Of a stretch of DNA of 64,000 nucleotides, positions 26,143-48,466 are shown piece after piece (positions within the stretch are counted from its first letter, which is position 1; each line of letters opens with the position of its first letter). Source of the DNA: an uncultured Ignavibacteria bacterium (lineage in GTDB: Bacteria; Zixibacteria; MSB-5A5; SM23-73-2); assembly GCA_964447175.1 (NCBI GenBank), contig CAYURP010000002.1:937-64936 (forward strand), read 5' to 3'. The position numbers and the translations under genes are program-made. The notes beneath the pieces are model-generated. The model ran no database searches and was not told the DNA's origin. It worked only from the letters and a program-made list of their open reading frames with translations.

Positions 26143-26994
26143 ATGAGCTTCTCATATTTCAGGATAGCTCATGAACACCCCTATAGGGGTTTCACCCTTC
26201 TGGAGTTAGCCATAGTCATGGCCATTTTCGGATTATTGACAGCATCCGCTGTAGGACTTTATGGGGCCATGTCCAAACGCAATCGAGAAGTGAAAACCAA
26301 AGACGAAATGGAAAACATAAGAGAGGCAGTGCTGGGCTATTATCGGAACTATCTGTTTTTACCCGCTCCGGAAGCCGGGTATGTTGTTCCCATTGACGAG
26401 CTGGATCTTCCACCCACAGCCCAGAAGGATGAGATCTATAAAGGAAAGTATTATGCTTACATAGCGACCAATGCCGGGTCACCATTCTCCGAGCTGTTAG
26501 TGGACGGACAGTCCATAGGAGAAACAGCTATAGTTTTGATATCCAGCGGAGCCAACTTGAGATTTGAGGAGGAAAATTCCGATCTCGGCGACGGGGAATA
26601 TTCTCAGGAGGGAACCACTGCAGATTTCGATGATATACTTATATGCCTTTCTGGCAACGAGCTGGGGTCCTCCATTGCTTGGAGAAGGGAGATCGAGGAG
26701 GAAGTGGCAGTGTTGAATCGGGCTGCAGAGATATTGGCGAAAAACGATGATGATGGAGATGGGTTTGTAGATGAGGATTCCACCGACCCTTCAGGCAACT
26801 CAGATAGCTACACTGACTGGGATCTGGTGAGTGGAACAGGGTCTTTAGTCAATGCCGGGCTTTTGTGGAATCCCGATCACATAGTGGACCCATGGGGAAC
26901 TGAATATTGTTGGGATTTTTTTAATCATGAATTTTACTCAGCCGGCTCCAACAGGACCGATGAAGGCTGTGGTGGGGATGATATCTGCCCTTAA
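26143..26994 (+). CDS. larger prepilin-type protein (minor pilin or pseudopilin)
   Basis: 283 aa. ...YRG|FTLLELAIVMAIFGLLTASAV prepilin motif, then an Asp/Glu-rich region (DDDGDGFVDEDSTDPSGNSD) resembling a Ca-binding loop. Confidence 0.65.
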   Translation: MSFSYFRIAHEHPYRGFTLLELAIVMAIFGLLTASAVGLYGAMSKRNREVKTKDEMENIREAVLGYYRNYLFLPAPEAGYVVPIDELDLPPTAQKDEIYKGKYYAYIATNAGSPFSELLVDGQSIGETAIVLISSGANLRFEEENSDLGDGEYSQEGTTADFDDILICLSGNELGSSIAWRREIEEEVAVLNRAAEILAKNDDDGDGFVDEDSTDPSGNSDSYTDWDLVSGTGSLVNAGLLWNPDHIVDPWGTEYCWDFFNHEFYSAGSNRTDEGCGGDDICP

Positions 26995-27009
26995 AAGGAG
27001 CAAAATCAA

Positions 27010-28377
27010 ATGCTTTTGTGCGTGGATTTGACAAGTAAGAAAGCCAAGGTAACCGGGATAAATAAGGGGAAAAGATCTTTCAGAGTTGTGGAATCGCTGG
27101 AATTTGACATATCTAAGCTGGAAACAGCCTTTGGAGAATATCTTAAGAGCAGATCCGGGGACATTGACGAAATAAGGGTATCCGGAGCTCTGGAGAATAC
27201 CTTTCATAAGATCTTCATTATTCCCGATCTGAAGGGAAAGATGTTTACGGCTGCCCTGTATTCTGAGGTGACAAAAGCCTTTGGAGTTATTTATCAATTC
27301 AAATACCTGGATATGGGTGAGGTCCCCGGTCCTGGTAATAAAATTAACCGAAAGATAATGTCAGCAGGTATAAAAAGAGATAACTTGGAAGAGCTCTCAC
27401 GACTGTTTAACGACTCCCCAACAAAACCGGATATGTTTACCACATATCCGGTAGCTGTGCATGCGGCTATTCAAAAACTCGAACTCATATCTGAGGAACC
27501 CCTGGGTTTTCTGGAGCTGGACTATCCCACCAGTCGTATAGTTATCTTCAAAGGGGATGAAATAAGAGTGTCTCGGGAGATCAATGTTCTGGAGGAGGAA
27601 AAAGACCCTGACCGATCAACTCTGGCTAAGGATATCTATCGAACCCTGCTTTTCTACACGGAGAACTATCCTAACGAGTTAGTGAAGAGAATAGTTTTGG
27701 CAGGAAACTCAGCCACCTCAAAAACTGTTGAGGCTTTGACTAAAAAAACAGGAGCTGAGATCATTCCCTTTTCACCCGAGGGCATGATCGAGAAATCAGA
27801 TAAAATATCCCCCGTTCCCCCTGGATGCTTGGGGCTGGCACTGTTAGATCCCGATAGCTTCCCCTTTGAATTCGTACCCATGTCGATTCAGGAGAAAAGA
27901 AAGATAAAAAAGGCATTAACCCTCTCCTTTAGTGCTATTCTGGTTATTGTCCTGATTCTTGCTTTAGCCATTTCTCGGTTTTCTCTGGATTTGAGAAATC
28001 TGAATAATTACCACAGGGGGATTAAAGGTGGAATCAAGATGAAGGAGGATCGGCTGAAAGAGCTGGGTTTGGAGTTTGTCTCTCATTCCATTGAAACCAC
28101 CCAACCCCCATGGTCTGAGGTGCTTCTGGAGATGGCAGCGGCAGTGCCGTCGGGGGTTGTTTTTGAATCCTTTGTCTTGAAGAAGACAAATAAGGTGTGG
28201 AGGGGGGAAATCGTAGGCTTGGCAGAGGGGAAAGACGAGATCAGCTCGCTTTTGCTGGTGGAAAGCTTACAAAATAATTTCAATCAGTCCCCCCTTTTTA
28301 AGGATGCTAAGCTGTTGGAAAAAGAACTGCAAGGTAAAAAAGTTGAGTTCAAAATTAATTATCAATTGAATATGTGA
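27010..28377 (+). CDS. PilM/PilN-like fusion (MshI/MshJ-like): actin-like cytoplasmic domain + TM + periplasmic domain
   Basis: 455 aa with a single TM helix ALTLSFSAILVIVLILALAISRF around residue 300. Position is first in an Msh-like gene order. The family call is inferred from architecture and synteny. Confidence 0.45.
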   Translation: MLLCVDLTSKKAKVTGINKGKRSFRVVESLEFDISKLETAFGEYLKSRSGDIDEIRVSGALENTFHKIFIIPDLKGKMFTAALYSEVTKAFGVIYQFKYLDMGEVPGPGNKINRKIMSAGIKRDNLEELSRLFNDSPTKPDMFTTYPVAVHAAIQKLELISEEPLGFLELDYPTSRIVIFKGDEIRVSREINVLEEEKDPDRSTLAKDIYRTLLFYTENYPNELVKRIVLAGNSATSKTVEALTKKTGAEIIPFSPEGMIEKSDKISPVPPGCLGLALLDPDSFPFEFVPMSIQEKRKIKKALTLSFSAILVIVLILALAISRFSLDLRNLNNYHRGIKGGIKMKEDRLKELGLEFVSHSIETTQPPWSEVLLEMAAAVPSGVVFESFVLKKTNKVWRGEIVGLAEGKDEISSLLLVESLQNNFNQSPLFKDAKLLEKELQGKKVEFKINYQLNM

Positions 28378-28378
28378 T

Positions 28379-37230: not shown

Positions 37231-40071
37231 TTAATTTTGCTTATTCTCCTGCTTAATCTTCCCCTCATCGATGATCTGAATAGGTCTGTGGCGAGGCAAA
37301 ACTTTTACTGTGATTTCCCTTTCCTCTCCTGGTTTTAGATCGAGCTGAAACTCCTCTTGCTCCAGGTAATGGTGGGTGGGTAGATTGTAGTCATAAATTT
37401 TCAGCTTCCATTTGCCAGGTCTTATATCTTCAAAGGAAAATCTACCTTTTTCATCTGTAAGTTGACGCAAAACTTCTTCTCCGTCAGTAATCTCTACTAA
37501 AATATTACCTAATCCTCTTCCCTCCCTCAAATCATCATTCTTAGGTTTTTCTTCTTTACCCGGCCCTATCAAAAACAGGCTGTCCTCGGAAATACTAACC
37601 TTATCCTCAAGTTTTTTATCCGAAGGGAGGGCGAAAATTGCTACCCTGCCTGAGAACTTACAAGAGGTTACTACACCAATCTCAGTCGTTATCGTTTCTC
37701 CACCTTTTACCTCTATTATAACAGGCAGTTTCCTGGTGGTAACCCGATTAAATCCGATAGAGGCTTTATCCACTCGCAGGTAGTAGGTTCCTGGCTCAAG
37801 CGAAGGAAAGATGTATCCTCCATTTTCGCGGGTTATCGCAGTTGCTTCATTAGCTGTTAAAATAACTTTTGGAATTGGGGGTTTTTCTGGTTTTTCTTGG
37901 TCATAAACTTTGCCTTTCAGAACTCCAATACTTTTCTTTTTGCTTACAGGAATTCTTAAGGGAATGGTATACATTAAGAGAAATGAGAACTCTCCCTTTT
38001 GCTTCTGTTCATACTTTGACCACTGGCTCCTTAAAACTAAAGCATGGTTATTTGGTAAGGTATAGTTAAGGGTGGAGAAGATATTACTTAGCTTTTGACT
38101 TCCTTCCGAACCAGATTCATCCCTCCGAAAGTTCAGGCTGATGCAAATTTCATCCTTGATATTCCAGGAACCTGAAATATCTATGGTTTTTGTCTTTTTG
38201 GGGCTCCCGGTAAAACTGCTATGTCCAGTTCTTGTGTAAAGACTATATGTTTGCCCGTAACTTGGACGAAAATGAAGATAAAGGCTATATCTTTCTAGAT
38301 TATTATTCTTGGTAGCTAAAAGTCTGTCTTCAAATTCCCCTCTTTCTACGTGGGTGCGGAGGCTGAATTTACCAAAGGTTTGTGCCACTTCTAATTTCAA
38401 TGTTTTTTCTTTGTAATTATAATTAACTGGTAAAACACAATCTTCTCTAATTAAATCTTCATACTTTAAAGAAATGTGTGTGCCAAAAGGAAATGAATAG
38501 AAAGCACTTGCCTGGCGAGACTTTTCCCGGTTAGCTGTCTCCTTAGTAGAGTCAATGTCGAGATTATTTTTGTAAGAGCGGTAGGAGAAATTTCCTCGTA
38601 GTTTACGGTAAATTGGAAAGGTTATTGTGCTACTCTTATAATCAGCATCATTGTAATAACCAAAATAGTTTGGTCCAGCATAAATATTCTCATAAGAGTA
38701 CCGAATCTGGTCAGATAACTGGCCATCCAGGTTTATTCGAAAGGCTAACTCACCAGATTCTTGTTCTCCCTCAGTATCGCAGTAACCCAATTCTAAGTCG
38801 AGATTTAAAGTCTTGGCTAATTCCACTTTTGATTCGAGACTATAGAGCTTCTCATCGTAGCTCCAGGAAGAGGAGGTGGATCTATTCCTTTTGGTCAGGA
38901 AATTTCCTTTTATGTTTAATTTCTTGGTGAATTGATAGCTAAGTGATGTTCCTACCCTTCTAAGCTTTGGTTGTGACCACCTGTTCTCTGCATAAAAAAC
39001 TTTTAATCCATACCTTTCGGGGGAGATATTTGCTTCTAATCCTCTACCATAACAGAATTTCTGGGTTAAAGGAGAAAGGGAATAACTTCCATCACCAAAA
39101 TGTAGCTGTATATCGTCATAGTGGTAACTGAGCCGGTACTCATCTCTTCTCCCGCGTCTGCTTATCTCCTGAATGTCAGGACCCCGAAATAGAAAATCAA
39201 TCCCTCGTTTGCCTTCTTCATCCAAACTACCCCTGCCGGAAAGCTCTGCCTGAAGACCGTTTTTTCCATCCTGGCCTGCACCCATTAATGCCACCTGAGA
39301 AGGCAATATAAGGTAACGACCAAATTCATCGGTTACTTTGGGGATAATCTCAACTAAAACCGTTCGGCTGACAGAAACCACTCCATTGCTTGAGTCTTCT
39401 GTCTCAGCCTTAATCTCAAGAACATTTTTGATTCTCTTTTTTAACTTTGCATCCGTCTCTACTTCAACTTTTAGAACCTGGGACTTTCCAGCTTCCAATG
39501 CTATCACAGGTGGTTTTATGCTAACCGGGTAGGTTGGAGTTGATTTTATTTTGAATCTTAAGTCGATTTTACTATTACCCTTGTTAACCAAACGCAGCAT
39601 TAACCCATAAGCATCTCCAGCAATTACCACCTCCGGTTTTCCTTCCACTAAAATCTCTAACTTCATCACTGGTAACACTACCACCGATATGCTATCACTA
39701 TCTGTGATATTATAATCCCTCTCACTTCTGATGGAATAGCCAATCTGGTAGCGACCGGTAGCACAAGTTTGAGGGACCATGAATGCGACCACCCTAACTC
39801 GTTGCTCTTCCGGCTTTAGTCTAAGAGGAAACTGGTCGGAAATAATCTCCTGCCAACCAGCAGGCAGCTTCAACTCCTCGATAAATTCCTCTTCCCCTTG
39901 GGTCTTGTTGGAAACCAGGAAACTTCCAGTAACGATTCTGCCAGGTTCTATCTCTAAAAGTTCAGGTGAGGTCGATCTTACTTCAACTCCATAACCTCTG
40001 TCTTGGGCAAAGCTTAAAGAGAATAGGAGGGAAATAAAACAAAAGAAGAAAATAAAATCCTTTTTCATCAT
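37231..40071 (-). CDS. large outer-membrane-type protein: N-terminal Ig-like region, central beta-barrel-like region, two C-terminal CarboxypepD_reg-like beta-sandwich domains (usher-like topology?)
   Basis: 946 aa; signal peptide MMKKDFIFFFCFISLLFSLSFAQ. The central ~350 aa are rich in Y/S/T/N/R alternating strands. The C-terminus has GVLKGKVYD...GGYIFPSLEPGTYYLRVD and GRVAIF...GRFSFEDIRPGKWKLKIYDYNL. Last gene of a 4-gene operon. Confidence 0.5.
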   Translation of the reverse strand: MMKKDFIFFFCFISLLFSLSFAQDRGYGVEVRSTSPELLEIEPGRIVTGSFLVSNKTQGEEEFIEELKLPAGWQEIISDQFPLRLKPEEQRVRVVAFMVPQTCATGRYQIGYSIRSERDYNITDSDSISVVVLPVMKLEILVEGKPEVVIAGDAYGLMLRLVNKGNSKIDLRFKIKSTPTYPVSIKPPVIALEAGKSQVLKVEVETDAKLKKRIKNVLEIKAETEDSSNGVVSVSRTVLVEIIPKVTDEFGRYLILPSQVALMGAGQDGKNGLQAELSGRGSLDEEGKRGIDFLFRGPDIQEISRRGRRDEYRLSYHYDDIQLHFGDGSYSLSPLTQKFCYGRGLEANISPERYGLKVFYAENRWSQPKLRRVGTSLSYQFTKKLNIKGNFLTKRNRSTSSSWSYDEKLYSLESKVELAKTLNLDLELGYCDTEGEQESGELAFRINLDGQLSDQIRYSYENIYAGPNYFGYYNDADYKSSTITFPIYRKLRGNFSYRSYKNNLDIDSTKETANREKSRQASAFYSFPFGTHISLKYEDLIREDCVLPVNYNYKEKTLKLEVAQTFGKFSLRTHVERGEFEDRLLATKNNNLERYSLYLHFRPSYGQTYSLYTRTGHSSFTGSPKKTKTIDISGSWNIKDEICISLNFRRDESGSEGSQKLSNIFSTLNYTLPNNHALVLRSQWSKYEQKQKGEFSFLLMYTIPLRIPVSKKKSIGVLKGKVYDQEKPEKPPIPKVILTANEATAITRENGGYIFPSLEPGTYYLRVDKASIGFNRVTTRKLPVIIEVKGGETITTEIGVVTSCKFSGRVAIFALPSDKKLEDKVSISEDSLFLIGPGKEEKPKNDDLREGRGLGNILVEITDGEEVLRQLTDEKGRFSFEDIRPGKWKLKIYDYNLPTHHYLEQEEFQLDLKPGEEREITVKVLPRHRPIQIIDEGKIKQENKQN

Positions 40072-40898
40072 TCAATTCCTAAATCATATTGAGCACCAAA
40101 GACGTATTCATCTCCGTTGTCGACTACTACTAAAGCCCTATACTTCCCTTTTGGAACATCCGTTAAATCAACATCATGCCTTACAGAACAGCCTGGGTAG
40201 ATCCGCTTTTTGTCACTTTCAAGGCGGTTCACCCTTGTTCCCTGGCTGTCGTAGAGTTCTACCCACATTGTGGGAGTAAGCCACCTTTCCCCGATATTTT
40301 CGATATCCATTTGAAGAATTGTTTTCTCATCCTGAATTATCAACTTCTTATCCAAAAACTTAATCTTACGGATTCCAGTATCGCTAATGTGTGTGATCAT
40401 CTGAACACCGTAGCGGATGACCTGCCTTATGCCCAACGCGGGTCTACCTTTCTCTGGCATACTGAACTCGGGTGAACTTTTTGAAATTTCCTCTACCATA
40501 AGCATACTCCAGTAGGTTCCGACCAGAGTCTCATCCTCAGGCACTTTTAAGGTATATTTAACCTCGGATACGTCTTTAGGCGGGATCACCTGCCGATGAG
40601 GGTTAAAGCTAATCCACTGGGCATTGGAGCGCTTATCCATGCCAGGCTCACCATAAATACTTCTGCCATCGTAGAAAAAAAGGTAGTCGGTCTGATAGAG
40701 CTTTACCTCTAAAGGTTCTTCCAGGGGGTTTCGGATAAAGATGACGCCCTCATAAAATTCACCCACTGTGGCTTCTCTTTCCTGGGTCAAGCCACCAACA
40801 ATAATTATCCCGGCCTGAGCTACATTCGGCATCAACAAGCAGGAAAACAAAGCAAAGAAAATAATCTTTCTTTTCAATTTCATAATCTCAACCTCCAA
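40068..40898 (-). CDS. secreted periplasmic protein (candidate chaperone-like/Ig-fold partner)
   Basis: 276 aa; signal peptide ...MPNVAQA. Beta-rich, no recognisable catalytic motif. A 4-nt overlap with the downstream barrel gene and a 1-nt gap to the upstream gene indicate translational coupling. Confidence 0.4.
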   Translation of the reverse strand: MEVEIMKLKRKIIFFALFSCLLMPNVAQAGIIIVGGLTQEREATVGEFYEGVIFIRNPLEEPLEVKLYQTDYLFFYDGRSIYGEPGMDKRSNAQWISFNPHRQVIPPKDVSEVKYTLKVPEDETLVGTYWSMLMVEEISKSSPEFSMPEKGRPALGIRQVIRYGVQMITHISDTGIRKIKFLDKKLIIQDEKTILQMDIENIGERWLTPTMWVELYDSQGTRVNRLESDKKRIYPGCSVRHDVDLTDVPKGKYRALVVVDNGDEYVFGAQYDLGIE

Positions 40899-40899
40899 G

Positions 40900-41379
40900 T
40901 CAAGTTTCGGTAACTGTGTAAATAACCGTGCCTGAATAAGTATCCGGGGTGATTTGTATGGAAACCCCTGTCAAACCACATTGTACACCGACGTTAATTC
41001 TCGTAAGTGAACCAGTAAAGAATTGTTGGTTAGCACCGGCCACTTGCTGCCATGAAGTTCCACCCGAGATTGAACCTGAACCGGTTCCATCGGTGGTTCT
41101 TCTGATGTAAAATGTCACACCGGGAGGCCATTTAGTAACGGCCCCTCTCACAGACACGACCCAGGAAGTGCTTGTATTTTCAATATCTATACCTATTTGA
41201 TCGGTGGCACTTAAATAGGTAGGGTTAAGGTCACTTCCAGCACCAGCTTGTAAATCTGAGGCATCAATAGTCAAAAACCAGCTACCAGTTACGGTAATGT
41301 CAATTGCCTGTATTTTTTCCCATATGGTAATTGACACAAATATAAAGAGCAGGATTAAGAATTTGATTGTTATTCTCAT
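40900..41379 (-). CDS. small secreted Thr/Gly/Ser-rich protein, SCPU (spore-coat-U / sigma-fimbria subunit)-like
   Basis: 159 aa; signal peptide. The C-terminus ...ITPDTYSGTVIYTVTET resembles the (A/P)GxYxDTVTVTV ending recalled for SCPU-domain proteins. Family assignment is from memory. Confidence 0.4.
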   Translation of the reverse strand: MRITIKFLILLFIFVSITIWEKIQAIDITVTGSWFLTIDASDLQAGAGSDLNPTYLSATDQIGIDIENTSTSWVVSVRGAVTKWPPGVTFYIRRTTDGTGSGSISGGTSWQQVAGANQQFFTGSLTRINVGVQCGLTGVSIQITPDTYSGTVIYTVTET

Positions 41380-41437
41380 TTTGTACTTTTTTGGGAAGAG
41401 GGCGGACCTTAAAAGGTCCGCCCATCGCCAAACTTAC

Positions 41438-41926
41438 TTACGGTCCATCTGTAAGGGTGTAGGTAACCGTGTGAACATCACTTCCCGTTCCTTGAGCTGC
41501 GGTAGCACTTGCCGTGTACTGTAAGTCACAGCCGCCAATTGTCGTCCCTATTGCGGTAACAAAATTATTGGCTCCTGTGGTGCTAAGAGTTACTTCGGAC
41601 GCTGCGGTGCCACCAGTGACGTTTTGAGCCAGAACTTTGAGGGTAAAAGTCGGAGCCGCCAGATCGGTTTCCACTGTGATCTTTTTAGTGGCTTCGTTTG
41701 TGGTCCAGTCCAGATCACAGGTGGTATTATCTACTGCGTCATCGGGCTCCTGTCCGGCAGTGGCGGTATTAATAGTCAGGACAAGGTTCCCCCCAGCAAT
41801 AGCAATCTCATTGATCGCTTGAACCTGCACGGTTACCGTGTGGTTGTCGGTGTTTGATGCCATTGCCAGTATGCCCACGGCAAGTACAAGCCCCATCACC
41901 GCCACACCCACAATCAGTTTCTTCAT
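41438..41926 (-). CDS. small secreted Thr/Ala/Gly-rich protein, possible second fibre-subunit-like protein
   Basis: 162 aa; signal peptide MKKLIVGVAVMGLVLAVGILAMA; strong RBS ggagggcgggaggag. Single Cys pair, and the C-terminus ends ...GSDVHTVTYTLTDGP. First gene of the operon. Confidence 0.4.
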   Translation of the reverse strand: MKKLIVGVAVMGLVLAVGILAMASNTDNHTVTVQVQAINEIAIAGGNLVLTINTATAGQEPDDAVDNTTCDLDWTTNEATKKITVETDLAAPTFTLKVLAQNVTGGTAASEVTLSTTGANNFVTAIGTTIGGCDLQYTASATAAQGTGSDVHTVTYTLTDGP

Positions 41927-42380
41927 CTTTCTCCTCCCGCCCTCCTGTGGTTTTTGGTTTCTTAAATTCCTATTACGACATTATCTCTAGGTATCGGGGA
42001 ACTAAGGTGAATCTGATCGGATATGTTCAGGATAATTTAGCTGGTTTTATAGATTTGCTTGTTCCCCACTCCTTCAAATTAACCTTTTGATCACCCGCAC
42101 CTAAAAAATGTAAAAAACTCCCTGTTTAGCACCTTATGATGTAATGCACCTCTTATTAATAACTCATTTTATTTTATCGGCTTAGCTTTAAATACCTTTA
42201 GGAGCTGGATTTAACTTATTCCAGAGGATTATTTTGACAATTTTTTAGAAGGATCAAATAATATTCCTATTGTTCCAGCTTTCAACAAATCATGTAAATG
42301 ATTTAAATTGGACTACTTTTAGATTGATCTTTCTCCGAGCCTGGGAGCCCCATCTACGGGCTCTGTGTAGCCCCCTTTCC

Positions 42381-42411
42381 AATAAAAAAGCCACCCAAAA
42401 ACTTGGGTGGC
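42381..42411 (-). terminator. rho-independent terminator for the sigma-54 activator gene
   Basis: The minus strand reads gccacccaag-ttttt-gggtggc followed by ttttttatt. It lies 20 nt after the stop at 42432. Confidence 0.6.
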
Positions 42412-42431
42412 TTAAATTCAGTTTATTTAGT

Positions 42432-45284
42432 CTATTCTGGTTTTTTGATTTTGTACTGTTTGATCTTGAATCTCAAGGAGGATTCCGGAATATGCAAGGC
42501 GTCTGCTGCGGCGTTTTTCACCCAGTTGCTGTCGATCAATGCCTTAATGATGTATTGACGCTCCCACAATGCTACCCGATCATAAAGGGAAAGCTTCTCC
42601 GAGTGCAAATCGGAGGGCATGGTGAATTTGTCGGAGAGGATGTCCAGACGCGGGGTTTTGGTTTCCCGGTTGAAAGCTAAAAGCCTTTTGACCTCGTTTT
42701 CCAGTTCCCTGACGTTTCCGGGCCAATTGTAATTGGTGAAAAGCTCCAGGATAAGGGGTATCAGATGGGAGAACTTAGATGGATCATCTGAGTAGGTTTT
42801 AATGAAGTGATCAACCAGCAAGGGGATATCCTCTCTTCGATCCTTGAGAGGAGTAAATTTGATATGCACGGCATTCAGCCTGTAGAAAAGATCCATCCGG
42901 AAGCCACCCTGTTGAACCTCCTCCTCCATGTTCTTGTTGGTGGCGGATATTATCCGGATATCTATTTTTCTGGGTTTGGTTTCACCTAACCGGGTTAACT
43001 CTTTATCCTCCAGGACTCTCAGTAGCTTGATCTGAATGGAGGGATGCATGTCTCCGACTTCGTCCAGATACAGAGTCCCTCCGTCCGCTTCCTCCAGAAG
43101 ACCCCTTTTATCGTAAGCAGCACCAGTGTACGCCCCTTTTCTATGCCCGAACAGCTCAGATTCGAATAAGGATTCGGGCAAAGCAGCGCAGTTTACTGGA
43201 ACAAACCTTTGATTTTTCCTGCTGCTGGAATAGTGGATGGCTTTGGCCACAAGATCTTTTCCGGTTCCGGTATCGCCTTCCAGCAATATGGAGATGGAGG
43301 AATCCTTCACCTGTTTCAGCTTCCATAACGTCTTGAGCATATCGCTGTTTTGAGTGATCACATTGGGGAAACAGTATGTGAGCTGGAGCTGTTCCTTCAA
43401 TCTCAGGTTATCTTCCTCCAGTTTCCTTTTCTGGATTTCCACTAATTTCAGGGCAAGGACGTCAGCAAAAGCCACGGCAAAGTTTAGCTGGTTCTGGTTG
43501 AAGGCTGAGCTTTGTTCACCGTTAACCACTCTATCCAGGTAAAGGTGGCCATCTATCTTCTCGCCGGTCTTCAGAGGCACACAGATCAGGCTCTGAATGG
43601 TGTTGCCGTTCTCCAGACTGGCATTGGTCTGGATAAGTGGTTTTTCCAGTTTTTCCTTTTTGTTCTGGAAAAGCTCGGTGAAGATCTCTGTGGCTTTATC
43701 CAGACTGAAGTTGTAGGCTGAGCTTATAGGAAAGTCCTCCTGGTCATTGTTTAAAACCACAAATCCTCTATCAGCAGAAATCCGATGGGCTAAAATCTGA
43801 AGGCTTTCATCCAGGCTTCCAGCTTGAATTCCTTGATATTCACCTTCGCTTAAATCCCTGCGGAACAGCCTGTACTCGTTATCAACTGAGAGACTTTTTT
43901 CACTGATGGCTTTTTCCACCTTGCTCCGCAGAGACAGAATCTGATCAAAGCAATACTGATCTTTTAGTTCGGAGAATATGTTTTGAGCCTGATCCAGCGA
44001 AGAGATAGAGTTATCGAAGTTGTTATTTGCCATTTGAACTTCTGCTCTTTGAATCAGGGTCAGACCAATCCAGTATGGGATTTTCAAACCCTTAAAGATT
44101 CTCTCACTTTCTCTGAGATAATTCAGGCTCTCCTGATGGTCGAAAAGCCTGGATTGAGCAGCTTTAAGAATAGTTTTAGCCAGCTCATATTTAGCTCCGA
44201 TCTCCCTGAAAAGATCGATACCTTTAAGGAAATACTGGGCGGCTTTGGTTTTCTCATCCTTCTGGGTATGAATCTGTCCAAAGAGCCTGTATACCGCACC
44301 CTCTTCCAGTTTGTTGTTCAATGAGAGGGAGACATCCAAAGATTTATTGCAGGAGTTTAATGCCTCCTCCAGTTGGTTTGAACTGAGCTGAAGTTCTGCT
44401 AATAGCCTGAAAGATTGATTAATTATATCACCATCCGGAGCGATCTTCTCTCCAATCTCGATTGCCTTAAGGTAGAATTCTTTTGCTTTTTGGAGCTCCC
44501 GTTTTTCGAATTCCAGCTCTCCGGAATACTCATAATAGATGGCTAACTCTCGGATCAGGTTGTTATTCTCTATTAAAGGTAAAGCTTTGAGATAGGTTTC
44601 CTCAGCTTGGAGGAAGTCCCTCATTAAAAATCTGATATAGCTCAGGGAGAGATAGCAGCGAGCTAAGTTTATCTCGTCTTTTCGATCTGTGTGAATTTTG
44701 ATGGCTGATAAGATGTTTTTCTCTGCTGCGGAGAGCTCCCCGGATCTGATATAGACCACAGCCACGTTTGCCAGAAGGTGAGCCATTACCTTATGGTTAT
44801 TGGTTTTTTCGCAGATGTGGATGCTTTCATTGAGGTATTCGATGGACCTGGAGAATTCGGATCGGATAAAGTAGATATTGGCTAATTTGTTGTATGAATT
44901 GATAATCCCCTCGTAATCCTCGATTCTCCTGTAAGTGGCTATAGCGTCCCTTAGTTCCGCCTCGGCGTTTTTGGAATGGCCCAGCCTGAGATAGGTGTTT
45001 CCCAGGATATAAAGGGTCTGAGCTATTCTTTTGTTTTCCAGGGTGTTTTTGAAGATCTCGTAGGCCTTTTTCCCTTCAGCCAGTGCTTCCTGGTACCTGC
45101 CCAGCCCGTAGAAAGTGGCAGCTAAAAGATAGGATATAGTGCCCCTATCAATAGAATAAGCGTCTTCTTTCAGCTGGGGCAAAATCTCTCTAAGCGCTGC
45201 TAACGCTTGGCTGAACCTGCCCTTCTGAACTAACGCTTCGACCTCTTCTAGCTTTGTATTTAGCTTTAGCATCGTCTTTTTCAC
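42432..45284 (-). CDS. sigma-54-dependent enhancer-binding protein with long N-terminal TPR array and GAF-like domain, C-terminal HTH
   Basis: 950 aa. About 450 aa of TPR repeats, then a GAF-like segment. AAA+ sigma-54 interaction domain: Walker A LEGDTGTGKDLVAKAIH, ESELFGHRKGAYTGA (GAFTGA variant), Walker B LYLDEVGDM. C-terminal Fis-type HTH AAADALHIPESSLRFKIKQYKI. Confidence 0.85.
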   Translation of the reverse strand: MKKTMLKLNTKLEEVEALVQKGRFSQALAALREILPQLKEDAYSIDRGTISYLLAATFYGLGRYQEALAEGKKAYEIFKNTLENKRIAQTLYILGNTYLRLGHSKNAEAELRDAIATYRRIEDYEGIINSYNKLANIYFIRSEFSRSIEYLNESIHICEKTNNHKVMAHLLANVAVVYIRSGELSAAEKNILSAIKIHTDRKDEINLARCYLSLSYIRFLMRDFLQAEETYLKALPLIENNNLIRELAIYYEYSGELEFEKRELQKAKEFYLKAIEIGEKIAPDGDIINQSFRLLAELQLSSNQLEEALNSCNKSLDVSLSLNNKLEEGAVYRLFGQIHTQKDEKTKAAQYFLKGIDLFREIGAKYELAKTILKAAQSRLFDHQESLNYLRESERIFKGLKIPYWIGLTLIQRAEVQMANNNFDNSISSLDQAQNIFSELKDQYCFDQILSLRSKVEKAISEKSLSVDNEYRLFRRDLSEGEYQGIQAGSLDESLQILAHRISADRGFVVLNNDQEDFPISSAYNFSLDKATEIFTELFQNKKEKLEKPLIQTNASLENGNTIQSLICVPLKTGEKIDGHLYLDRVVNGEQSSAFNQNQLNFAVAFADVLALKLVEIQKRKLEEDNLRLKEQLQLTYCFPNVITQNSDMLKTLWKLKQVKDSSISILLEGDTGTGKDLVAKAIHYSSSRKNQRFVPVNCAALPESLFESELFGHRKGAYTGAAYDKRGLLEEADGGTLYLDEVGDMHPSIQIKLLRVLEDKELTRLGETKPRKIDIRIISATNKNMEEEVQQGGFRMDLFYRLNAVHIKFTPLKDRREDIPLLVDHFIKTYSDDPSKFSHLIPLILELFTNYNWPGNVRELENEVKRLLAFNRETKTPRLDILSDKFTMPSDLHSEKLSLYDRVALWERQYIIKALIDSNWVKNAAADALHIPESSLRFKIKQYKIKKPE

Positions 45285-45292
45285 CCATAGAG

Positions 45293-45601
45293 TTATCTGC
45301 TGGCCTTACTCCTTGAATGACGTGAGCGGGTGGACTCAGAACCCTTGGTTTTGACTGGAGTATCCGAAACGGATACCTTGGTAAAAGTGAAAGTGAAATA
45401 GGGAGAAGCCGGTACATAACCTACGGTTACGATGATAACCTTGATGTCATCATCATAATAAGGTGTGCTGCCTGTCTCATTCCAGGGGTCAGCATCCGGG
45501 TCTGGTTTGGGGTCCGTCCCATCATTGGGAAAGGCTGAAACTATAAGGAATAGGAGAAGAAAAACCAGGGTTAAAAGACTTAGGATCTTTTTTGCTTTCA
45601 T
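45293..45601 (-). CDS. small secreted Asp/Pro-rich protein with basic C-terminal tail
   Basis: Start set at MKAKKILSLL... with RBS ggaggagggg. Signal peptide, then PNDGTDPKPDPDADPWNETG, and the C-terminus ends ...TKGSESTRSRHSRSKASR. About 9 nt from the activator gene start. Confidence 0.45.
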   Translation of the reverse strand: MKAKKILSLLTLVFLLLFLIVSAFPNDGTDPKPDPDADPWNETGSTPYYDDDIKVIIVTVGYVPASPYFTFTFTKVSVSDTPVKTKGSESTRSRHSRSKASR

Positions 45602-45934
45602 CTTTCCCCTCCTCCAAAGCGGGATCAAAAGTTTTTACTTTTTTAAAGAACTACTTTATTGGAGGAAATTAAACAAACTCCTCCATTCTAAATTTAATGC
45701 AAAAAAGCTTTTTTGTCAAGCGTTTTTTGCTAATTTCTTATGTTCCAAAAAATTATACGAAAGCTCTTTTAACTGAATTTGAACGAAATAATTAGCAACA
45801 AAAAAACTGATTATGAAATAATTCTGAGTTCTTGAGTTAAAATACTTCATCAAAGGCCACTTTACAGGACTTGAGAAGAATTGCCTGATTCGAGAGATTG
45901 CCACGACCTTCGAGCCCGCAATTACATAGGGTAG

Positions 45935-46081: not shown

Positions 46082-48394
46082 CTACCACCAGGACCAGATC
46101 TCTACCCTTAGGTAGTGGATTATTCTTCTGGTTAAGACATAAATCAAACTTCGTTTTCCGCAGTAGATTTTGGCATGGCCGGTCATCCCGGGCCTTAATA
46201 GGTGCTCGGCGTTTGCTACTTTGCTGGTTATTCGGAATACTTTCCTTGAACCAATGCTTTCGGATTGATGGGAGATTCTGGAAACCTCTCCAAAAAATGA
46301 TTCAAAGGGATAGCTCCTGACTTTGGTTTTGACCTTTAATCCGGGCTGGACCACGTCCATGTCTTTTTCAGAAACATAAATCAAAACCCTTACGGTATCG
46401 ATGTTTTTGATGCTCAGGAAGTTGCTGTCTGTTTTCACTGTGGTGACAATCCCGGAGATGGGGGTTTTTATCTCGGATGCCTGTATCTGATTCTCCAATA
46501 ACTCTGCCTCTGCCTTGAATTGTTCCACCTCTGCCTGTGCCATTTTAAGTTCCTCAGGCTTTGAGCCAGCTTCCAGTATCTTGAGATCGTTTTCTGCAAT
46601 ATCCTTTTCCTTAATCAGAACAGAGTGGTCGGTGGTGATTTTTTCTAATCCCTCCTCGCTTATCAGATTCTGCTCTGAAAGCTTCTTTGCCCTATCCAGC
46701 TCAGATTTTTTGGATTTGAGTTTAAGTTCCGCTTGAGTTAACTTGTCTTTAGCATTCTGGATTTCCTCCGGGTCGGGCCAGTTTTCTAAAAGCTGGTAAT
46801 TGGCTTCTGCTTGTTTGATTCTGGCGTTTATCTCCTTTAGCTGGGTTTTATACTGGGTGGAGCTAAATGAGGCTATTACCTGTCCCGGCTTCACCATCTC
46901 CCCCTCTTTTACCCTGGTCTCCAGATTGACCACGGCATAGTCCGAGGAGATCAATTTCAAAAAATTGGTCTCCTTTTTCTCCTGGTTTTTTGCCAGAAAA
47001 ATATTCTCCTGAATATACCCGTCAGTATGGGTAATCAAGGTATAGGATTCCAGGGGTGCGATCTCGCAGTTGCTGGAGACCCTTAACTGAATCGGGAAAA
47101 GGAAAAGAAAAAGAAGAATTGCAGCAATTATGATTGACCATCGGATGATCTTTTTTGGCTTCAAAATATCCTCTTTTTTTACCAGAAAAAAGCTAACAAA
47201 CCCAGCCAGAAAAACCTGAGCCGGATGTTTAAAGATAAGATAGACTAAAACCAAAAACAAGACAAATCCATACCCCTGAAACTGGTGCACTAAGAACTTC
47301 TCGACTCTGATAAAAATATAACCCAGAAGCAAGACAGAATAGATCAGAGACAAACTTCCATAAAAGGAGTAAATCTTTTTCTCCTTGGGCGTGATATTAA
47401 CTTCCTGCACTTCCAACTTCAGGATATTCTTTTTGAAAACCGAATTCAGATAACCGAACGCTTTTTTTCTGAGGTTGGGTATCTCCAGGTAGTCTGACAG
47501 AAGATAGTAGGCATCGAATTTCATCAGGGGATTGAAGTTAAAAAGCAAAACTACACCGGAGGTCAACATCACCACGAAAAGGAAACTATTGAGCTGGGTT
47601 TGGATATCGGTGATTCTCCAGAGAATGGTTGCTGATGCCCAGAGGAAAATGTGAATGTAAATTCCGGCAAAGGAGACCCAGAGCTTTTTCGATTTCTCTT
47701 TAAAAAGCCAGGCATCGGACACGTTGGTGAAAAAAGCAGGCTGAAGATATATCAGCAAAAATCCCATCTCATGCACATCTCCACCATAGTGTTTACAGGT
47801 TACGGCATGCCCCAGCTCGTGAATTATCCCGATAAAAAAGATGGCAATCCAGAGCTTGAAGATGGTGGTGATGCGATAAAGCCCCCGAAGAGAGTATCCC
47901 AGATCGCCCCAGTTAAAGATTGTTATGAGGAAGCCTAAAACTATCACCAAAATCGAGAAGATGAAAAACCCGGGCGTGAATAGGAATCTAACCTTTTTGG
48001 TGAACCTATCCAGAAACCTGTTGGGATCAAAGGCTTTGATCTTTAAAAAGAAAATCCTTCTGAGGATGTTTTTCTTTTTCTGAGCCTGGTATTGTAATTT
48101 TGAAAGCTCCCTTTGAGATATTTCCCCTTCTAAAAAGCCTGCCTTTTCCAATTTTTCAATGAATCTATCTAAGGTTTCAGAGGATACTATGACATTCAGT
48201 TCCTGATGCAGCTTTTGTATAATCTTTTCTTTGGGTGTTTTGCCGTCGAGATATTTTATGATAAAGTGTTCTGGTTCACCCACACGGAAGAATCTTTTGG
48301 TGATAGGATCTTTTATCACATAGTAGGTTTTGTTCTCGAATACCTGCTGGCTTGTGATCAGCTTTTCCCTTATTTTGGGATAATTACCTGTCAT
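46082..48394 (-). CDS. membrane HExxH zinc-metalloprotease-like domain fused to HlyD-family periplasmic adaptor (membrane-fusion protein) domain
   Basis: The ORF runs to a GTG at 48466. The first ATG with a plausible context is MTGNYPKIRE (48394), so the start is uncertain. A multi-TM region contains GIIHELGHAVTCKHYGGDVHEMGF. The C-terminal half has an HlyD-like coiled-coil, biotin-lipoyl-like and beta-barrel segments (GEMVKPGQVIASFSS...; RVLIYVSEKDMDVVQPGLKV). Confidence 0.6.
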   Translation of the reverse strand: MTGNYPKIREKLITSQQVFENKTYYVIKDPITKRFFRVGEPEHFIIKYLDGKTPKEKIIQKLHQELNVIVSSETLDRFIEKLEKAGFLEGEISQRELSKLQYQAQKKKNILRRIFFLKIKAFDPNRFLDRFTKKVRFLFTPGFFIFSILVIVLGFLITIFNWGDLGYSLRGLYRITTIFKLWIAIFFIGIIHELGHAVTCKHYGGDVHEMGFLLIYLQPAFFTNVSDAWLFKEKSKKLWVSFAGIYIHIFLWASATILWRITDIQTQLNSFLFVVMLTSGVVLLFNFNPLMKFDAYYLLSDYLEIPNLRKKAFGYLNSVFKKNILKLEVQEVNITPKEKKIYSFYGSLSLIYSVLLLGYIFIRVEKFLVHQFQGYGFVLFLVLVYLIFKHPAQVFLAGFVSFFLVKKEDILKPKKIIRWSIIIAAILLFLFLFPIQLRVSSNCEIAPLESYTLITHTDGYIQENIFLAKNQEKKETNFLKLISSDYAVVNLETRVKEGEMVKPGQVIASFSSTQYKTQLKEINARIKQAEANYQLLENWPDPEEIQNAKDKLTQAELKLKSKKSELDRAKKLSEQNLISEEGLEKITTDHSVLIKEKDIAENDLKILEAGSKPEELKMAQAEVEQFKAEAELLENQIQASEIKTPISGIVTTVKTDSNFLSIKNIDTVRVLIYVSEKDMDVVQPGLKVKTKVRSYPFESFFGEVSRISHQSESIGSRKVFRITSKVANAEHLLRPGMTGHAKIYCGKRSLIYVLTRRIIHYLRVEIWSWW

Positions 48395-48466
48395 TTTTCT
48401 GAGAACGATTTTTTTATAATCTACCAAAACGTAATAAAATAAGTCAAGTGAAATCTGAATTAGCAC

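Follow-up and report, generated by a model that had tools for sequence, protein, structure and literature searches.

The question raised by the window analysed here, a stretch of 64,000 nucleotides (nt) of contig CAYURP010000002.1 from an uncultured Ignavibacteria bacterium, is what is assembled by four adjacent genes on its minus strand, between positions 41926 and 37231. These genes are called g1 to g4 below, in the order in which they would be transcribed. A preliminary description, made by reading the sequence, had compared them to an archaic (sigma/Csu-type) chaperone-usher (CU) locus, with the caveat that they might equally form a different, undescribed assembly system. Our analysis favors, with a probability of roughly 0.6, a non-canonical CU-type assembly line for a donor-strand exchange (DSE) surface fibre, built from non-classical protein families. 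The architecture of the locus and the fold of its subunit agree with the original comparison; membership in the Csu/SCPU group or in any other classical CU family was supported by neither family nor profile tests. The caveat proved correct. The candidate chaperone is of the lineage of the Gram-positive WxLIP proteins.

All six open reading frames (ORFs) of that description, that is, the four operon genes and their neighbours, were recovered on the minus strand with the same coordinates. The first gene, g1 (41438-41926), encodes a secreted protein of 162 amino acids (aa), the candidate major subunit, and g2 (40900-41379) encodes a second secreted, subunit-like protein of 159 aa, a candidate minor, tip or adaptor subunit. 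They are followed by g3 (40068-40883), whose 271-aa periplasmic product has two immunoglobulin (Ig)-like domains and is the candidate chaperone, and by g4 (37231-40071), encoding a usher-like outer-membrane protein of 946 aa. Typical Sec N-terminal signal peptides had been claimed for the two small proteins; as read from the translations, they are present on all four (AMA/S, IQA/I, AQA/G and SFA/Q in g1 to g4, respectively), occupying residues 1-24 of g1 and 1-22 of g4. The genes are less densely packed than the reported 1-4-nt overlaps at every junction: g1 and g2 are separated by 58 nt, which contain a stem-loop at 41423-41400 (GGGCGGACC-TTTT-AAGGTCCGCCC, -28.4 kcal/mol), g2 and g3 are separated by 16 nt, and g3-g4 is the sole overlapping pair of the operon, sharing 4 nt (ATGA). 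Nor is a strong ribosome-binding site (RBS) restricted to the first gene, since a GGAGG lies 8 nt before the ATG at 40883, the likely start of g3. The periplasmic protein, initially given as 276 aa, is real, but most likely starts at this ATG and is 271 aa long, rather than at the TTG at 40898, because nearly all of its homologues (267-283 aa) align from there. Strong hairpins at the g1-g2 position were also found in two related loci, L002 (-35) and L007 (-41), and were not seen in L003 and L005; by analogy with major-pilin genes, the stem-loop may be an attenuator or an mRNA stabiliser favoring g1 expression. In the order of its genes, in the hairpin behind g1 and in the ATGA that couples g3 to g4, the locus resembles pilus operons.

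The fibre reading begins with g1, which is unusually conserved, with a mean column identity of 61% across phyla, and occurs in multiple tandem paralogues (up to five copies). The AlphaFold (AF2) model of g1 is a seven-strand beta-sandwich (pLDDT 87.2, pTM 0.73), and residues 25-38 (NTDNHTVTVQVQAI; nt 41813-41854) sit outside this monomer fold. The same N-terminal stretch is nearly invariant in the family: H29, V31 and V35 are conserved at 100%, and hydrophobic positions (V/V/V/A) alternate along it. Residues 25-38 are predicted to be a donor strand. A Foldseek search against the PDB returned mainly subunits of DSE fibres as top matches, among them CfaB (6.9e-4), TasA (E 1.9e-3, TM 0.39) and the Hyper2 tube (TM 0.49); further fold matches were Caf1, CfaE, FimF, AbpA, CanA, CsuA/B and TLP-1b. 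At the level of the predicted structure, the fold class of g1 is shown to be that of a DSE-pilin-like sandwich. In Pfam and NCBIfam none of g1, g2 and g3 reaches the curated cut-off of any family, and single-protein sequence searches of the PDB gave no match for g1, g2 or g3.

The origin of g3 became apparent from profiles. A profile search of the PDB gave EfmWxLIP1 (9i25_C, 9i1y_A) as the best sequence match, with E 0.0024 and 168 colinear positions over both domains. Alignment by hhalign of 82 g3-family sequences with eight Gram-positive WxLIPs scored 94.6% (E 6.7e-8) over 236 colinear columns; the WxLIPs were taken from annotated plasmids and trimmed of signal peptides and of the transmembrane anchor, and reversed controls gave E of at least 0.05. 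Among 144 diverse g3 relatives, Pfam detected WxLIP_PGBD in 34 (best 3.1e-5) and WxLIP_HBD in nine, in each case below the gathering cut-offs. As three independent tests agree, profile comparison identifies g3 as a remote homologue of both WxLIP domains, DUF916 followed by DUF3324. One difference is constant: WxLIPs all have a C-terminal membrane helix, whereas none was found in g3 or its homologues, which end after domain 2 (...VFGAQYDLGIE).

In confident AlphaFold models of Hassan et al., a hairpin of WxLIP that is otherwise disordered turns into a strand and fills the gap of the WxL beta-sandwich (PMC10599100). As modelled, this insertion would be donor-strand complementation in all but name. 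The segment of g3 that matches this hairpin in the HMMER alignment begins with an acidic loop and continues as a long amphipathic strand, in which R157, Y158 and Q161 are near-invariant; the candidate donor strand comprises residues 145-166, LGIRQVIRYGVQMITHI. PDB entries 9i1y and 9i25 are solved structures of EfmWxLIP1, which is chain C in 9i25, so that further chains must be present; a literature search found no paper for either entry. If the other chains of 9i25 are WxL proteins, the entry would give a direct view of WxLIP-WxL strand insertion, with relevance to the role proposed for g3. A separate observation concerns one record retrieved with the loci, a plasmid labelled Klebsiella pneumoniae (L099; CP069367.1:96782-106504), in which an unannotated region is 94% identical to the EfmWxLIP1 of Enterococcus faecium; the record has only six annotated features and looks mislabelled or contaminated.

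The topological likeness of g4 to an usher, noted at the outset, is reproduced by its AF2 model (pLDDT 84.9). Two Ig-like domains (residues 29-132 and 138-243; nt 39343-39987) precede a barrel region (approximately residues 253-711; nt 37939-39315), followed by two C-terminal beta-sandwiches (716-814 and 849-926; nt 37294-37926) with a disordered linker between them. The order of domains is thus as in ushers: periplasmic N-terminal domain or domains, pore, and two C-terminal domains, CTD1 and CTD2. The two sandwiches are mutually paralogous (96.6%) and match CarboxypepD_reg (Pfam 2.7e-11), as was suspected from the letters. Classical ushers form a 24-strand barrel in which a plug domain is inserted between strands 6 and 7. 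The plugged 24-strand barrel was not recovered in g4: DSSP assignment of the model gives 26 consecutive strand segments, the longest inter-strand gap being 13 residues, with no inserted plug. The idea that the N-terminal Ig pair is a fused g3-like or PapD-like chaperone was not adopted, as it yielded weak signals only (55% against domain 1 of g3 and 37% against the PapD N-domain). Many homologues of g4, the closest relatives included, have about 1,100 aa instead of about 940, that is, about 160 extra residues (P0244-P0259; L002:10849-14160, L009:10813-14127, L101:7215-10529).

The second small protein, g2, forms its own conserved family with conserved motifs (alignment A7) and has no Pfam or PDB relatives. 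We infer that it is a second, less abundant subunit (tip, adaptor or terminator). The 53 C-terminal columns of g2 match g1 (hhalign 70.9%, E 3.8e-5; controls at most 8%), and 27 C-terminal columns match the second WxL motif (71.6%, E 3.5e-5) in a region picked after the motif had been seen; both likenesses are suggestive only. Two stronger proposals were discarded. Paralogy of g1 and g2 found no BLASTP match, and the full-length hhalign score of 51% (E 1.6e-4) was lower than that of g1 against its own reversed alignment (76%). Identification of g1 and g2 as WxL domains, with hhalign scores of 51-86% before trimming, was due to signal peptides, the g2-versus-g3 control scoring 72%.

The four genes travel together. 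ORFs were called afresh in 83 non-redundant loci and then assigned by profile searches, and the order g1 (1-5 copies)-g2-g3-g4 is dominant among them. Where the flanking DNA sufficed, in 58 independent loci, g4 was present in all 58, g1 in 54 and g2 in 44, so this arrangement is far beyond chance. As the flanking genes vary from locus to locus, the four genes constitute a functional unit. A scan of one genome per species gave at least 325 genomes with a g3 relative, and in none of them is the cassette annotated; the 80 listed are all metagenome-assembled genomes (MAGs). The carriers, all of them uncultured, include Zixibacteria, Ignavibacteria/Bacteroidota, Desulfobacterota, Planctomycetota, Nitrospirota, Armatimonadota, Riflebacteria, Bdellovibrionota, Verrucomicrobiota, Spirochaetota, Synergistota, Dictyoglomota and Thermotogota, and the cassette is spread over more than 12 diderm phyla. 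In a protein collection clustered at 90%, there are 355 homologues of g1, 558 of g3 and at least 160 of g4, nearly all of them nameless and, where a source is stated, from metagenomes or MAGs. An exhaustive profile search with g3 retrieved 3,563 clusters (50% identity) at E<=1e-3 and 705 at E<=1e-30, strong family members being found throughout the best 150 matches listed. The nearest relatives of the window locus are MAGs labelled Ignavibacteria or Zixibacteria. No account of the cassette, or of diderm relatives of WxLIP, was found in the literature that could be searched.

Two local variants of the cassette deserve mention. In the Bacteroidota/Ignavibacteria variant (L056, L061, L064, L065, L072-L075, L082, L084 and L088) g1-like paralogues stand in tandem, three to five of them, g2 cannot be recognised, and a further g1-like gene lies 3' of g4; in many of its loci a divergently transcribed sigma-54 activator of NtrC size is present. 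In a deltaproteobacterial MAG (L007:3610-19646 and L008; JAGXTA010000032.1) the cassette lies amid conjugation and mobile-element genes, namely those for the type IV secretion coupling protein TraG/VirD4, TrbI, a lytic transglycosylase (SLT) and ParB, with an extracytoplasmic function (ECF)-type sigma factor gene just downstream; this setting suggests horizontal mobility.

Taken as a fibre assembly line, the system could operate as follows. All four proteins would be exported via Sec, as their signal peptides indicate. The major subunit g1 would be an incomplete Ig-like beta-sandwich whose N-terminal strand (residues 25-38) completes the fold of the neighbouring subunit, a role proposed from the fold matches and the conservation of this strand, and g2 would be incorporated as the second, less abundant subunit. 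By homology with the WxLIP-WxL models (PMC10599100), g3 would be a soluble periplasmic chaperone that lends a beta-strand to unassembled subunits. The usher-like domain order and the fold match lead us to propose g4 as platform and pore in the outer membrane: the Ig domains of its N-terminus and its two C-terminal sandwiches would take chaperone-subunit complexes in the periplasm, and its barrel of 24-26 strands would pass the growing fibre. An excess of g1 would be favored by its strong RBS and by the hairpin 3' of the gene. This scheme draws on sequence comparison and on monomer models of g1 and g4, from which we infer polymerisation and the chaperone and pore roles.

Several observations weigh against such a fibre. 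No component has sequence homology to CU families when compared by hhalign with seven real CU operons. WxLIPs, the relatives known for g3, have been described as scaffolds of the cell wall and not as chaperones for pili. For g4, the lead of usher fold matches over large barrels in general is a mere 2 Z units or so (17.0 versus 14.7), the barrel has no inserted plug domain, and the strand segments apparently number 26, not 24.

Chief among the rivals is a surface complex that does not polymerise, a diderm counterpart of the Gram-positive WxL clusters, which include Csc of L. plantarum. In it, the role of g3 would be to bind g1 and g2 and to stabilise them through an inserted strand, and that of g4 to export them or anchor them on the outer surface as a coat or adhesion complex. 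The homology of g3, colinear with both WxLIP domains, speaks for this possibility, as does the parallel between the order small-small-WxLIP-like-large and the order small WxL-WxLIP-large WxL. Both systems are predicted to work through a strand that the protein of WxLIP type inserts in a sandwich lacking one (PMC10599100). The suggestive likeness to the second WxL motif of the strand motif at the C-termini of g1 and g2, quantified above for g2, points the same way, and WxL proteins are described as surface-bound rather than as fibres (PMC10599100, PMC9772566). We nevertheless consider this complex unlikely. Almost all of the structural neighbours found for g1 are DSE subunits that polymerise, and an invariant, unpaired N-terminal strand would have no obvious role in a 1:1 complex. 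Both the tandem paralogues of g1 and the hairpin behind this gene are in keeping with a major structural subunit. After trimming, full-length hhalign comparison with WxL proteins gave 0.1% for g1 and 6% for g2, and Pfam WxL (PF13731, with its dual Trp-x-Leu motif) matched neither family, so that no WxL domain is detectable in them; a Gram-positive cluster has at least two WxL-domain proteins. The cassette differs from the WxL clusters also in that g3 has no transmembrane helix, the large protein is an outer-membrane barrel and not a WxL-anchored adhesin, the hosts are diderm, and an LPXTG protein is absent.

A true but highly divergent member of the classical CU pathway, of the archaic sigma/Csu type, is a much poorer candidate than the WxL-like complex. 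The likeness to Fim/Pap, CFA/I, Caf1 and Csu/CupE pili is one of plan: the major subunit gene comes first, followed by those for a minor subunit, a two-Ig periplasmic protein and a large outer-membrane protein, and the fold of g1 matches DSE pilins, including CsuA/B and pilins of the CFA/I class. The second Ig domain of g4 adds a faint PapD_N signal (Pfam E 0.003; hhalign 37%, E 3.5e-4). In contrast, no component has sequence homology to its supposed counterpart, none of the proteins reaching the Pfam cut-off for Usher, PapC_N, PapC_C, PapD_N, PapD_C, Fimbrial or SCPU, or any such family in NCBIfam. The absence of a PapD signature from the supposed chaperone, already remarked upon, was confirmed in g3 and in 144 diverse relatives (PF00345/PF02753), and hhalign of g3 against seven CU chaperones (FimC, MrkB, PefD, FaeE, SafB, Caf1M and one Pantoea chaperone) gave 1.0% with E 0.05; g3 is significantly related to another family, WxLIP. 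Fimbrial (PF00419) and SCPU (PF05229) matched neither g1 and g2 nor 42 g1-family and 36 g2-family members, and the subunit profiles scored below 0.5% against ten real CU subunits. Usher (PF00577), PapC_N and PapC_C gave no Pfam match in g4, which scored 6.3% (E 0.006) against seven ushers; it differs from these further in its unplugged barrel of about 26 rather than 24 strand segments, in its N-terminus of two Ig-like domains instead of PapC_N, and in its CarboxypepD_reg-like C-terminal domains.

In a SusC/TonB receptor an N-terminal plug (PF07715) lies inside a 22-strand barrel (PF00593), and CarboxypepD_reg domains, common in such receptors, are N-terminal in the SusC type. That g4 is the large channel or receptor of an uptake or porin-type system, with g1-g3 as periplasmic or surface binding proteins, is the least credible reading, since the 'porin' label and faint Porin_4 matches of some g4 homologues and the frequency of CarboxypepD_reg in SusC/TonB receptors are set against a lack of Pfam matches to the TonB plug or the TonB-dependent receptor family in g4, the C-terminal position of both CarboxypepD_reg copies, a g1 fold that is pilin-like and not binding-protein-like, and the absence of transporter, TonB/ExbBD or catabolic genes conserved beside the cassette.

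The DSE fibre thus remains our preferred reading, and three further systems help to place it. Fibres of the TasA/camelysin type have subunits of the M73 family, a dedicated signal peptidase, SipW, and TapA. TasA/TapA, the archaeal bundling pili (AbpA) and the cannulae (CanA/CanX) are chaperone-free or minimal DSE fibres whose subunits are among the top matches of g1; unlike the cassette, they have neither an outer-membrane component nor a two-domain periplasmic partner. Pfam found no Peptidase_M73 signature in g1 or g2 and no DUF1102 signature in g1, and no signal peptidase in the conserved neighbourhood annotated with it. The TLP-1a/b fibrils (CryoSeek; PDB 9ikk) are DSE fibres from an unidentified bacterium, with an N-terminal donor strand that is disordered in AlphaFold, as for g1 (PMC11494351). 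TLP-1b differs from g1 in sequence (9% identity) and in size, its protomer having 237 residues against about 138 in mature g1; no TLP was found in the PDB by the g1 profile, and no g1-family member of matching size in the fetched loci. The Pam pili of the Candidate Phyla Radiation (CPR) are a recently found system: they have low identity to CU systems, Ig-like DSE pilins, and membrane-anchored, two-Ig-domain chaperones predicted to insert strands (bioRxiv 10.64898/2026.03.03.709456). As described there, they differ from the cassette in the anchoring of the chaperones, in their two-domain pilins, in being reported exclusively from CPR, and in the lack of an usher, which follows from CPR bacteria lacking an outer membrane. 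Their existence makes a version with a soluble chaperone and an usher plausible in diderms, and the preprint shows that such pilus variants are only now being found.

What would follow from the fibre reading is of some consequence. CU pili are the textbook case of ATP-independent fibre assembly, and are thought to be largely confined to Proteobacteria and a few other groups. The same working logic built from unrelated families would extend the CU-type mechanism over much of the uncultured bacterial tree, and would give a testable function to four large families of 'hypothetical proteins', of which g3 alone accounts for at least 705 clusters (50% identity). The component families are not previously linked to pili. 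It is possible, with somewhat less than an even chance, that the cassette represents an unrecognised class of DSE pili across diderm phyla, with a chaperone that shares an ancestor with Gram-positive WxLIP. If so, the WxL clusters of Firmicutes, perhaps the pili of CPR with membrane-anchored chaperones, and the cassette would form one ancient family for envelope fibres and surface display, separate from the classical CU pathway or its deep sister, and g4 would either have converged on the architecture of ushers or be more divergent than any other known usher. The homology between g3 and WxLIP provides the first evolutionary bridge from a diderm usher-type system to the WxL clusters, whose mechanism is still debated, and points to WxLIP as a chaperone that donates a strand. 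Such fibres could also explain some of the unidentified, TLP-1-like DSE fibrils seen by environmental cryo-EM, for which the locus offers candidate assembly genes.

The preliminary description also dealt with regulation of the operon. The gene upstream (42432-45284) does encode a 950-aa sigma-54 activator with its own terminator (42413-42388), and Pfam detected Sigma54_activat (2e-67), TPR, a weak GAF and HTH_8 in it. Signal-dependent sigma-54 control of the operon had been suggested from this adjacency. The reported absence of a canonical TGGCAC-N5-TTGC box from 41927-42380 was borne out by strict and relaxed scans of 41927-42431, which found no -24/-12 box, the best candidate with GG/GC fixed having 4/11 matches; the sole relaxed match of 8/11 falls inside the terminator of the activator. 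In the whole window, only two sites reach at least 9/11, at 29744 and 54123 of the plus strand, and both are inside ORFs. Synteny with the activator is not kept in close relatives: in L100, L101 and L102, where g1 is 82-87% identical, the cassette stands behind unrelated genes with no activator, and likewise in L009. Elsewhere the association is more convincing. A sigma-54 activator lies within 10 kb in 18 of the 83 loci; apart from the 950-aa TPR-GAF protein of the window, the other 17 have 454-492 aa, the size of the REC-domain NtrC-type protein of L005. All seven non-window loci with an upstream activator on the same strand have a promoter of at least 9/11, for example TGGCACGCCGATTGCA in L013, and such promoters were found in 13 of 62 loci versus 4.6% of control windows. 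Sigma-54 control, as judged from promoter matches and linked activators, is real in some clades, which made the suggestion a reasonable one, and is unsupported for the window locus.

A different, candidate regulatory element precedes g1. A leader of about 300 nt (41927-42225, minus strand) can be aligned to the DNA upstream of g1 in relatives with different upstream genes. Its other copies are at L100:7690-8003, L101:5022-5339, L102:931-1244, L009:8627-8940, L033:8590-8910, L002:8645-8957, L030:2788-3115, L031:8655-8969, L039:1298-1610 and L003:8642-8958. With nhmmer it was located directly 5' of g1 in six Zixibacteria loci outside the set used for building the model (E 2e-20 to 2e-4). The leader contains the conserved blocks CTAAAG and GCCGAYAA, and RNAalifold of 11 leaders predicts a hairpin of about 62 nt, in which 13 of the 18 pairs show compensatory changes; a U-tract follows 3' of the hairpin in nine of the 11 sequences, about 100 nt before the ATG. 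Rfam gave no match for the leader or the hairpin. In the Zixibacteria-like clade, the leader looks like an attenuator or a riboswitch-type element; the copy in the window is diverged and has no U-tract. About 30 nt upstream of the start of leader conservation there is a sigma-70-like site (42258-42285, minus strand; TTGAAA-16-TATTAT, 10/12 matches in a consensus scan). Transcription in the window would probably proceed from this candidate promoter, a consensus match of sigma-70 type, through the leader, and not from a sigma-54 promoter.

Some neighbouring genes remain to be described. The small, secreted D/P-rich ORF of 111 aa (45293-45628, minus strand) exists, as had been reported, but is no part of the system: homologues are missing from all 82 other cassette loci. 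It starts at a TTG, has no RBS and may not be a real gene. Convergent to the cassette, in the window (26143-36201, plus strand) and in its relatives, lies a cluster resembling type II secretion system (T2SS) or MSH-pilus genes, which encodes an MshEN/T2SSE ATPase, T2SSF, a TPR protein, an AAA protein and a secretin; read by eye, its members in the window include the ATPase at 33362-35002 and a GspF-like protein at 35002-36201. Counterparts are found at L009:15368-20816 and L102:7677-9727, and this synteny is kept inside the subclade and not outside it. Finally, 5' of the activator, a minus-strand ORF of 794 aa (46082-48466) has, by eye, a zinc-protease-like HELGH motif in a multi-pass membrane N-terminal half, followed by a long C-terminal half of coiled-coil, HlyD-like appearance.

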